A stretch of DNA of 56,764 nt from Candidatus Tantalella remota (GCA_030765685.1 JAVCCB010000082.1:1-56764), one strand, 5' to 3'. Counted from the first letter of the stretch, positions 37,370 through 37,768 are shown. Program-made: numbers and translations. Notes: generated by a model not told the origin, from the sequence alone.

Positions 37370-37768
37370 CAAATCCAAAACCCAAAGCCCAAAATCCAAA
37401 GGAAATCCAAATCATTAAATCCAAAATCGTCATTGCGCGTGTCCGCCATAGCTTCTTGTCCGCCAACTTGTCCGCCGACTTGTCCGCCGACTTGTCCGCC
37501 GTAGCCTTGGCGAAGGCGGAAGCCTTGGCGAAGGCGGAAGCCTTGGCGAAGGTGGAAGCCTTAGCGAAAGCGGATAGCGAAAGCGGGAGGGCACGTAGTG
37601 CCTGAAACCGGATGAGCTGAAAAAGGGAGCACAGAAAGGTTCCCCGTAATAAAATATAAATCAATGTAGGGAAGCAATCCCCATAAAAAAAATGGGCTCT
37701 TTGTACTGAATTTGCGTGTTTTGTCATTTGGATTTCTTTTGTCATTTGGATTTTGACATTTGGATTTT
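37370..37768 (-). repeat. Composite repeat, inverted copy of 43445-43777
   Basis: aaatcca heptamer flanks, GTCATTGCG...GAAGCAATC host, shared ~100-bp core. Confidence 0.88.
37438..37587 (-). mobile_element. Five-fold nested 30-nt hairpin mini-element (150 nt)
   Basis: On the + strand parses as 17+12+12+12+30+18+18+18+13 nt = 5 concentric 30-mers. Confidence 0.8.

Follow-up and report, generated by a model that had tools for sequence, protein, structure and literature searches.

We describe a nested repeat in a 56,764-nt stretch of DNA from Candidatus Tantalella remota (GCA_030765685.1, JAVCCB010000082.1:1-56764), here called the window, which is one whole contig of a metagenome-derived assembly of 2,025,415 bases in 96 contigs, rated 94% complete. 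On the minus strand, positions 37438-37587 parse exactly into five concentric 30-nt hairpin units, 150 nt in all, as an earlier reading made from the letters alone (the sequence-only reading) had claimed. We propose that this tract is built of stacked copies of a non-autonomous hairpin element, 30 nt long, that enters its own loop, an explanation to which we give a probability of about 0.6. Coordinates refer to the whole window unless a contig (C) or locus (L) is named; the source genome (G000) is compared with a genome of the same genus whose genes are about 80% identical (G001, the congener).

A nest of five concentric hairpin units

The unit has the consensus TCCGCCTTCGCCAAGGCT-NN-GGCGGACAAG, and the nest was resolved with a peeling script that removes 30-mers with at most five mismatches from this consensus, rejoins the ends and repeats. 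Five rounds dissolve the tract completely and leave no residue. Read along the minus strand, the layout is 13 + 72 + 48 + 17 = 150 nt, the outermost unit supplying the first and last blocks and the other four units a block of left halves followed by a block of right halves (Table 1). Counted outward from the innermost level, mismatches to the consensus number 0 in levels 1 and 2, 1 in level 3, 2 in level 4 and 5 in level 5. The split falls after base 18 in levels 2-4 and after base 13 in level 5, between CGCTA and AAGCT. The sequence-only reading had placed four self-insertions between GCT and TCGG; this holds for the three inner junctions, whereas the outermost lies at the other site and involves another subfamily. 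In the window as a whole, the 18-mer left half is matched 10 times at up to three mismatches (0.06 expected), and the 10-mer right core 27 times at up to one mismatch (3.0 expected; shuffle maximum 7).

Two interruption sites and two subfamilies

The source genome holds 111 units at 88 loci, of which 71 are single, 13 double, 3 triple and one, the present tract, quintuple; nesting thus occurs at 17 loci, to a depth of up to five, where about 0.14 nested units would be expected under random placement. Contig C50 begins with another nest, at least five levels deep, which is truncated by the contig end. Of the 23 interrupted units, 8 have the split after base 13 and 15 after base 18, no other site being used, and the interruptions are 30, 60, 90 or 120 nt long, all multiples of 30, which bears out the claim that nesting is site-specific. 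At least a dozen different combinations of host and insert are present, and therefore more than one nesting event must be involved.

Every host split after base 18 carries T at base 19 (15 of 15; TC in 14, TT in 1), as opposed to 22 of the 88 intact units, the others having AC (41) or AT (25) at bases 19-20 (Fisher p = 2e-8), and no unit of the source genome with A at base 19 is filled. This agrees with the target between GCT and TCGG that had been put forward. The inserts after base 13 have the left stem TCCGCT in 8 of the 8 cases found by peeling, and 7 of these belong to a second subfamily, B (TCCGCTTTCGCTAAAGCTTYAGCGGACAAG), whose stem TCCGCT/AGCGGA differs from that of the main subfamily in both arms; the remaining insert is level 4 of the present tract, which joins a TCCGCT left stem to a GGCGGA right stem. 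Two further subfamily-B units, recognized by eye, stand after base 13 of diverged hosts within the window.

A left-left junction signature is found in 12 of the 301 sampled genomes of the class, the source genome included. In 13 two-level nests from outside the source genome, one of them on a viral contig, concentric pairing of the stems is better than crossed pairing in 8, equal in 5 and worse in 0, and the stems of outer and inner unit often differ, as in CCCTCC[TCCCCC..GGGGGA]GGAGGG. Such concentric stems fit the insertion of whole hairpins into hairpin loops. The base-13 junctions likewise favor insertion, since slippage of 18-nt and 12-nt repeats cannot make them, and so does the variation of stem pair 4-23 among relatives described below.

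Within the window, a strict census (at most five mismatches) gives 13 units at 9 loci; the 14 loci and roughly 30 units of the sequence-only reading are reached when diverged and long-loop copies are added by eye. Among the places where it had seen the same nesting, the one at 2475-2534 is a clean two-level nest. Positions 1-69 hold the same composite with one extra base in the outer left half, the loci at 2782 and 3693 have the variant unit after base 13 of diverged hosts, and the locus given as 8009 is a nest at 8058-8117 within a longer repeat.

Fold of the unit and covariation

A single unit pairs bases 1-6 with bases 21-26 in a 6-bp stem, which encloses a 14-nt loop and leaves a free 4-nt CARG tail; the loop in turn comprises a 3x3 internal loop, a 2-bp GC mini-stem (bases 10-11 with 16-17) and a 4-nt apical loop. 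Folded as RNA, level 1 adopts ((((((...((....))...)))))).... at -12.9 kcal/mol (z = -2.7), and single units fold better than shuffled sequences, their z-scores ranging from -2.0 to -2.7. The base-13 site falls in the middle of the apical loop and the base-18 site in the 3' strand of the internal loop. In foreign copies there is covariation between bases 12 and 15 (C..G 108, T..A 51, other 8), and bases 1 and 26 also covary (T..A 36, C..G 26, other 9); at stem pair 4-23, the 18 distinct units from relatives include T-A in 8, G-C in 4 and C-G in 2. It is a known property of DNA hairpins that two-residue loops are closed by a pyrimidine-purine pair. If that property holds, the covariation at 12/15 hints at a single-stranded DNA form.

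Presence, absence and insertion contexts

The congener has 7 units, and 3 of them lie where the aligned region of the source genome has none, one being a clean intergenic case between two conserved genes. The window itself contains a longer repeat in an uninterrupted and a filled state (Table 1), together with a deletion variant at 8310-8420. From the presence and absence at orthologous sites we infer that the unit is mobile, as the sequence-only reading had held; a mobilizing protein was not found in the searches described below. Three other candidate empty states were set aside. In a further relative (G010) the spacer corresponding to the tract is free of repeats and about 190 nt long, at an identity of 68% that does not make a clean comparison, and the contigs of the congener end at the flanking genes. 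Alignment of a paralogue of the giant open reading frame described below with its congener orthologue gave no clean empty site for the in-frame composites. A 19-nt minimal hairpin, considered as the ancestral host, is represented by only 3 CCGCCTTCGGCGG sites, none with the tail. At locus L222 of the congener (C6, about 2017-2181), compared with C48 2628-2695 of the source genome, about 110 extra bases carry a unit-like hairpin and are bracketed by a direct duplication of a segment of about 45 nt (CGGGGCGCTGGGATCTTACT..CCCCGGCGCCAC), which the source genome has in one copy.

The outermost units of the source genome stand in several contexts, each of which was compared with control sites. Arrays of period 7 (heptamer arrays) hold 17 of the 86, at heptamer boundaries, as against 0.02% of control sites, and removal of the unit restores the period; the loops of other hairpin repeats hold 7 of the 86 as against 0.8% of controls. 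We rejected the hairpin-loop context as a general rule, the effect being weak, with 4 of 69 foreign units in such loops as against 1.0% of controls. An ATGAC-like tag, defined together with its CGTC form as in PMC3733652, lies within 25 nt downstream of 25 of the 86 outermost units and of 7.5% of control sites. The left flank mostly ends in CT: of the 88 loci, 70 have T at -1 and 61 have C at -2. Orientation relative to local GC skew is 50:38 (not significant) and reaches 47:24 where the absolute skew exceeds 0.05; the loci are not independent, and the bias is suggestive at most. The variant of the unit correlates with its sequence context in the source genome, which implies that composites have been copied whole and hence that independent events are fewer than copies.

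Units also stand within coding frames, 19 of the 88 outermost ones lying in open frames of at least 150 aa. Locus L164 (C89, 188-8764, plus strand) is an open reading frame of 2860 aa with Methyltransf_31 and GNAT domains in which five units and heptamer-repeat composites are all in frame, as linkers of the kind ..QGTGEDSLEHPPSPSAFAKASADKRLRRTGG... The frame at 37344-37745 reads SAFAKAS..ADKSADK; the unit amounts to 10 codons, as the sequence-only reading had remarked. In-frame copies in a multi-domain reading frame of this size point to such elements as a possible source of linkers in giant proteins. Other large frames with units are found on C69 (3716 aa) and C72 (602 aa), and in a relative of the same class (G030, C6:577505-577720, locus L172) the giant-frame query matches inside an open frame of 23,032 codons.

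Occurrence beyond the source genome

An exact 24-nt core of the unit occurs in at least 119 stretches among contigs representing one genome per species, where by our own estimate, assuming uniform composition, about 0.3 chance matches would be expected. The carriers include Bradyrhizobium and other alpha-Proteobacteria, Acidobacteriota, Verrucomicrobiota, Bacteroidota, Patescibacteria, Planctomycetota, Elusimicrobia, Nitrospirota, Armatimonadota and others, and the full 30-mer occurs letter for letter in Bradyrhizobium, in Armatimonadota and Bacteroidota, and in many further phyla. Collection anchored on the loop with one mismatch allowed gave too much noise to be of use. Translated, the unit gives Ala, Phe and Lys codons, and for that reason some single matches in G+C-rich genomes may be chance matches in coding sequence; we therefore rely on whole units present in several copies. 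Bradyrhizobium sp. LMG 9283 has 13 copies, three of them letter-identical to level 2 of the tract, an Armatimonadota chromosome has 8 and a Chitinophagaceae genome 34; a reversed control pattern gave 0 matches in all five genomes searched. The Bradyrhizobium unit stands between GATTGCT and TCGCT, again at a boundary between GCT and TCG, in a repeat that ends in CGCAATGACG. On the minus strand of C48 of the source genome, a unit is flanked by gattgcttcgtcgct and tcgctcctcgcaaagacg, the same wording as in the Bradyrhizobium host repeat (GGATTGCT and TCGCTACGCTCGCAATGACG on either side), so that one host repeat, besides the unit, is common across phyla.

The distribution is patchy: 10 of 40 relatives have the unit, as do 2 of 150 further genomes sampled from Pseudomonadota, the phylum of Bradyrhizobium. 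The core is carried by 40 viral contigs, one of which holds a nest whose stems are concentric. A protein-atlas search returned broad glycosyltransferase clusters only. A blastn search of plasmids with the center of the nest gave only noise at E >= 0.3. In Rfam, matches fell far below the gathering scores, the best E-value in the region being 0.73. Neither the unit's 14-mers nor the strings CGTCATTGCGAG and CTCGCAATGACG have a match in the text of the papers searched, though figures or supplements may list the unit; shorter strings matched unrelated primers only, and a word search for nested small repeats returned nothing closer than the papers on SDRs and CGTC REPs cited below. At five of the at least 119 foreign loci (L056, L058, L082, L086 and L120) units lie, by eye, a few to tens of bases from tRNA-like genes, and at L120 the unit begins one base after a stretch resembling a tRNA 3' end.

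Coordinates and other repeats of the window

The tract lies in a 525-nt spacer between convergent genes that end at 37316 (plus strand) and 37841 (minus strand); their products are a kinase-glycosyltransferase fusion and a small lysine-rich protein without a Pfam family. Table 1 collects the parts of the nest, its immediate surroundings and the other copies in the window.

Table 1. Features of the nest, its surroundings and further copies of the unit in the window.
Feature	Position	Strand	Remarks
Level 5 (outermost), first 13 nt, CCCGCTTTCGCTA	37575-37587	-	followed by gap of 120 nt after base 13, at hairpin-loop apex
Level 5, last 17 nt, AAGCTATGGCGGACACG	37438-37454	-	peeling
Four 18-nt left halves	37503-37574	-	peeling
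Four 12-nt right halves	37455-37502	-	peeling
Level 1 (innermost), intact, TCCGCCTTCGCCAAGGCT-AC-GGCGGACAAG	37491-37520	-	0 mismatches to consensus
Level 2	37479-37538 (left half 37521-37538, right half 37479-37490)	-	split after base 18; bases 19-20 TC
Level 3, left stem TCCACC	37467-37556	-	split after base 18; bases 19-20 TC
Level 4, left half TCCGCTTTCGCTAAGGCT	37455-37574	-	split after base 18; bases 19-20 TT
Tail CGCAATGACG, directly 3' of nest	37428-37437	-	reverse complement starts CGTC, like CGTC-type REP tag
Heptamer and 25-nt tandem repeats beside nest	37371-37425		Tandem Repeats Finder
14/18-nt tandem repeats on other side of nest, same intergenic spacer	37719-37768		Tandem Repeats Finder
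Exact tiling piece, run X1	37424-37495
Exact tiling pieces, run X3	37472-37532; 37503-37550
Exact tiling piece, run X2	37530-37604
Two-level nest in GTACCGG/GTATCGG heptamer array	2475-2534	+	7-nt period restored on removing outer unit
Subfamily-B unit 3706-3735 (TCCGCT/AGCGGA) after base 13 of diverged host	3693-3752	+
Subfamily-B unit 2795-2824 after base 13 of host with further unrelated insert	2782-2889	+
Filled copy of longer repeat: unit 8076-8105 between GAAGCT and TCGGCGGACAGG	8058-8117	+
Empty paralogue of that longer repeat, GAAGCT-AC-GGCGGACAGG	10580-10608	+	uninterrupted
Single unit within heptamer array	27117-27146	-

Several other repeats accompany these copies. A long-loop relative, in which TCCTCCTTCGCCAA and GCTACGGCGGAC are separated by about 19 AT-rich nt, occurs at 8009-8060, 8325-8375, 10521-10575, 29897-29945 and 52150-52185; it interrupts a unit of the CCCGCC type near base 9, which makes a third kind of nesting. 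The same type is nested in itself downstream of the Y1_Tnp gene of contig C24. Positions 3272-3492 are a perfect tandem duplication of 112 nt (2.0 copies, 100% matches) with related pieces beginning CCCGCCTTCGC and GGCGCGCAGAC. Dozens of heptamer and octamer arrays with several unit sequences are spread over the window, for example at 183-245, 5650-5794, 17964-18036, 29712-29803 and 52303-52423. These short arrays are reminiscent of those in heterocystous cyanobacteria; the relatives of the source genome are only 1-3.7 Mb in size.

Discussion

Our data suggest a model in which new copies of the unit would be inserted into the loops of copies already present. The main subfamily would go in after base 18, at the boundary of GCT and TCGG, and the second subfamily (TCCGCT/AGCGGA) at the loop apex, after base 13. 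Each entry would add exactly 30 nt, and the halves would for that reason be equal in number and the stems concentric. The unit may also be placed in heptamer arrays, in other REP-like hairpin loops and, in frame, in large open reading frames; composites that contain it would be copied whole, and slippage or deletion between the directly repeated halves would later blur the balance. A putative protein acting in trans would catalyze insertion, with single-stranded hairpin DNA as its most plausible substrate.

The foremost alternative is that, after one or two real nesting events, the 18-nt and 12-nt repeats expanded by replication slippage, the 4:4 ratio being a coincidence or the outcome of selection for a paired hairpin, which we regard as rather unlikely. 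Tandem Repeats Finder does report the tract as two plain arrays, one of period 12 (3.9 copies, 37455-37501) and one of period 18 (4.0 copies, 37503-37574), the left halves of levels 1 and 2 are identical, as are the right halves of levels 2 and 3, and the deletion variant at 8310-8420 resembles a deletion between two GGCTACGGCGGAC repeats. Slippage does not, however, bring members of the other subfamily to the base-13 junction, and it gives no account of outer and inner stems that differ and yet pair concentrically. Starting from a three-level nest, it needs a left and a right duplication at different levels where one further insertion would suffice. An unselected census of the source genome by strict run counting also speaks against it: 14 loci have at least two consecutive left halves (15 have at least two consecutive right halves), and 10 of the 14 have equal right halves, while among the other four C36 and C50:3127 are balanced on inspection and C1:10467 and C70:30266 are truly unbalanced; one of the 14 is cut by a contig end.

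Unequal arrays are nevertheless common in metagenome contigs, and with several other observations they weigh against a history of insertion alone. The sequence-only reading had suggested parsing all copies with a nested grammar and comparing the halves. In the source genome, strict run counting gives 11 of 23 loci as balanced; on inspection the others are mostly copies missed by the search pattern, nests at base 13, a locus at a contig edge or hosts short of a full unit, and three loci (C1:10467, C70:30266 and C80:8376) are truly unbalanced. Among 50 metagenome contigs with at least three consecutive left halves, a sample that is biased by its choice on left halves and drawn from short-read assemblies that can miscount repeats, 15 are balanced by run counting and 11 are free of orphan left halves after peeling, with 75 of 188 left cores orphan; 9 of the 39 unbalanced metagenome loci are close to the end of a contig. 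Neighboring left halves have the same sequence in 62 of 94 pairs where the locus is unbalanced and in 19 of 34 where it is balanced. In several metagenome nests AC stands at every level, so that the rule of T at base 19 is not universal. The whole 150-nt tract folds no better than shuffled sequences (z = -0.1). In the source genome, stem pair 4-23 is broken without compensation in 16 of 42 distinct units, and right stems are almost invariant, which makes its nests uninformative on concentricity (concentric pairing better in 0, equal in 11). No single sequence among the public-run contigs spans the tract.

The unequal halves in metagenome contigs and in the source genome indicate that slippage or deletion between halves also acts, and does so frequently. 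The argument from equal halves to insertion is weaker than the sequence-only reading had it, balance not being general. Our reading is that the architecture comes from insertion, with later slippage as noise; one level of this tract could stem from a matching pair of duplications, and deep levels could partly reflect co-expansion.

The search for a mobilizing enzyme adds to the points against self-insertion. The source genome has two RAYT-like Y1_Tnp genes, at L216 (C24, 488-1084, 199 codons) and L217 (C68, 1018-1989, also listed as C68:33017-33988, 324 codons), and related nested repeats lie about 230 nt downstream of the former; in the congener, the orthologue of the C24 gene has a unit about 2.4 kb upstream, at the contig start. 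Among 41 relatives, 36 have Y1_Tnp, whether or not they carry the unit; it has no match in the Bradyrhizobium (13 copies) and Chitinophagaceae (34 copies) carrier genomes, and tblastn with the two proteins found no match in 864 kb around 119 foreign copies; the C24 protein has no close homologue in 4 of 5 carrier genomes. These results led us to set aside a link with RAYTs. The resident RAYT-type Y1 transposase is a candidate agent in the source genome and is not supported as a general one.

A selected structural motif, that is a REP-like RNA or DNA signal such as a transcript-end stabilizer or protein-binding site that has spread only within larger composites, seems to us improbable. It would suit the letter identity of the 30-mer across phyla, the covariation at 12/15 and 1/26, the tracking of context by the variants and the copying of composites whole. 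The position of the nest between two convergent genes would suit it too, and REPs are described in PMC3733652 as lying mostly downstream of genes and possibly acting as RNA. It leaves unexplained the copies inside copies at two fixed positions and the 19 of 88 outermost units in open frames, and it sits poorly with the lack of an Rfam match (best E-value 0.73), with the broken stems of many copies in the source genome and with the patchy distribution.

Mis-resolution of a short-period repeat in assembly is very improbable. The assembly is a metagenome product of 96 contigs, contigs of both the source genome and the congener break at such repeats, and a spanning public contig is wanting; yet read support, assessed on contigs of public runs, is partial but consistent, as exact pieces from three other runs tile the whole tract, junctions included, with 0 differences and no indels listed, and the architecture recurs at the 17 nested loci of the source genome and in other assemblies. 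The five levels differ in sequence, so that most words of at least 31 nt are unique, which also counts against an artefact. RNA runs contained 5% or less of the words sampled, and the tiling by contigs bears on neither abundance nor expression. Least credible is a protein-coding repeat in the 133-aa open frame at 37344-37745 (minus strand), for although this frame is open through the tract and the unit equals 10 codons, the frame has no Pfam family, consists almost wholly of nest and flanking tandem repeats, and shares the tract with two more open frames.

We also put forward a tentative and rather doubtful extension. The unit might be a micro-transposon of bacteria at large, smaller than any self-targeting mobile DNA seen so far, crossing phyla and possibly phage-borne, since 40 viral contigs carry its core, which homes to hairpin loops, its own included, between GCT and TCG by means of undescribed non-RAYT machinery and whose 10 stop-poor codons can act as in-frame linkers in giant proteins. 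Under the insertion model itself, the concentric shells would record insertions and give a direct readout of target choice, with two subfamilies, two loop positions and, in the source genome, a one-base rule. The spread of 20-40-nt repeats in bacteria is at issue here; RAYT transposases explain GTAG-type REPs only. The presence of the same 30 letters in a cultured Bradyrhizobium makes the question testable at the bench.

Comparison with known systems

The small dispersed repeats (SDRs) of heterocystous cyanobacteria are hairpin units of about 20-30 nt that occupy heptamer arrays and other repeats at precise sites and are thought to be mobile and non-autonomous, and in these respects the present unit is like them. 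They reportedly form eight families, confined to a cyanobacterial subgroup, of 21-27 nt, and are said to lie in heptamer arrays and in some cases to be nested in themselves. Both habits recur here, in the 17 of 86 outermost units that are embedded in heptamer arrays and in the 17 nested loci. The present unit differs in its length of 30 nt and its occurrence in many phyla, a comparison drawn by description and not from consensus sequences. According to papers that cite Elhai et al. 2008 (Genome Res 18:1484), the 21-nt module SDR5, for which they know no function, sits exactly between the third and fourth base of the octamer HIP1.

The CGTC REPs are stem-loops of 8-9 bp with loops of 4-5 nt, a CGTC or TGTC tag by a stem starting with AT and a short tail; they occur in several phyla, mainly in alpha-Proteobacteria including Bradyrhizobium, where some have complex loops. 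Some lie inside genes, they lack a dedicated transposase, and RPE-4 and RPE-6 are equated with them (Di Nocera, De Gregorio and Rocco 2013, PMC3733652). The word 'nested' is absent from that paper. The likeness lies in the ATGAC(A/G) that follows 25 of the 86 outermost units, in the Bradyrhizobium copies inside repeats ending in CGCAATGACG and in the cross-phylum spread, whereas the stem of the unit is 6 bp long, its loop is a structured one of 14 nt, and it nests in itself; the two are set apart by description and not by a family consensus. The ATGAC-type tag belongs to the flank of outermost units and not to the unit, and the outermost composites of the form CCCGCC..GGCGGG+ATGACA, which resemble a CGTC REP, depart from its definition with a loop of 22 nt.

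With the REPs and REPINs mobilized by RAYTs the unit shares the character of a short, extragenic, multi-copy hairpin with a proposed single-stranded movement without target duplication, and the source genome has its two Y1_Tnp genes. It differs in having no 5' GTAG tag, in being mostly single instead of forming inverted doublets and in occurring in carriers without a Y1_Tnp match. Its ends read YCC... and ...CARG, and GTAG appears only in the loops of AC variants, on the opposite strand. Rickettsia palindromic elements (RPEs) are likewise small palindromes found in frame in protein genes, as the units of the 2860-aa frame are; at about 100-150 bp they are larger, and self-nesting is not reported for them. 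Insertion sequences of the IS1397 type also aim at palindromic units, namely REP hairpins, but are autonomous, of kilobase size and encode a transposase, where the insert here is a 30-nt hairpin. In single-strand transposition of the IS200/IS605 type, an element with a hairpin inserts 3' of a short fixed sequence, without duplication and with a strand bias tied to replication; the CT of the left flank and the orientation relative to GC skew given above are what the unit offers for comparison. MITEs are defined by a length of 70-300 bp, terminal inverted repeats and target-site duplication; the unit has 30 nt, and duplication amounts to at most a 2-nt TC at self-insertion sites and to none in heptamer contexts. 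As the unit falls outside the GTAG and CGTC definitions of REPs and that of MITEs, it is a small hairpin-repeat variant and not a member of a named family. The nest itself has precedent, and the letter-perfect spread of 30 nt across phyla without an evident transposase is the more interesting part. Our best reading of these comparisons is that the unit probably works like the cyanobacterial SDRs and the REP elements.

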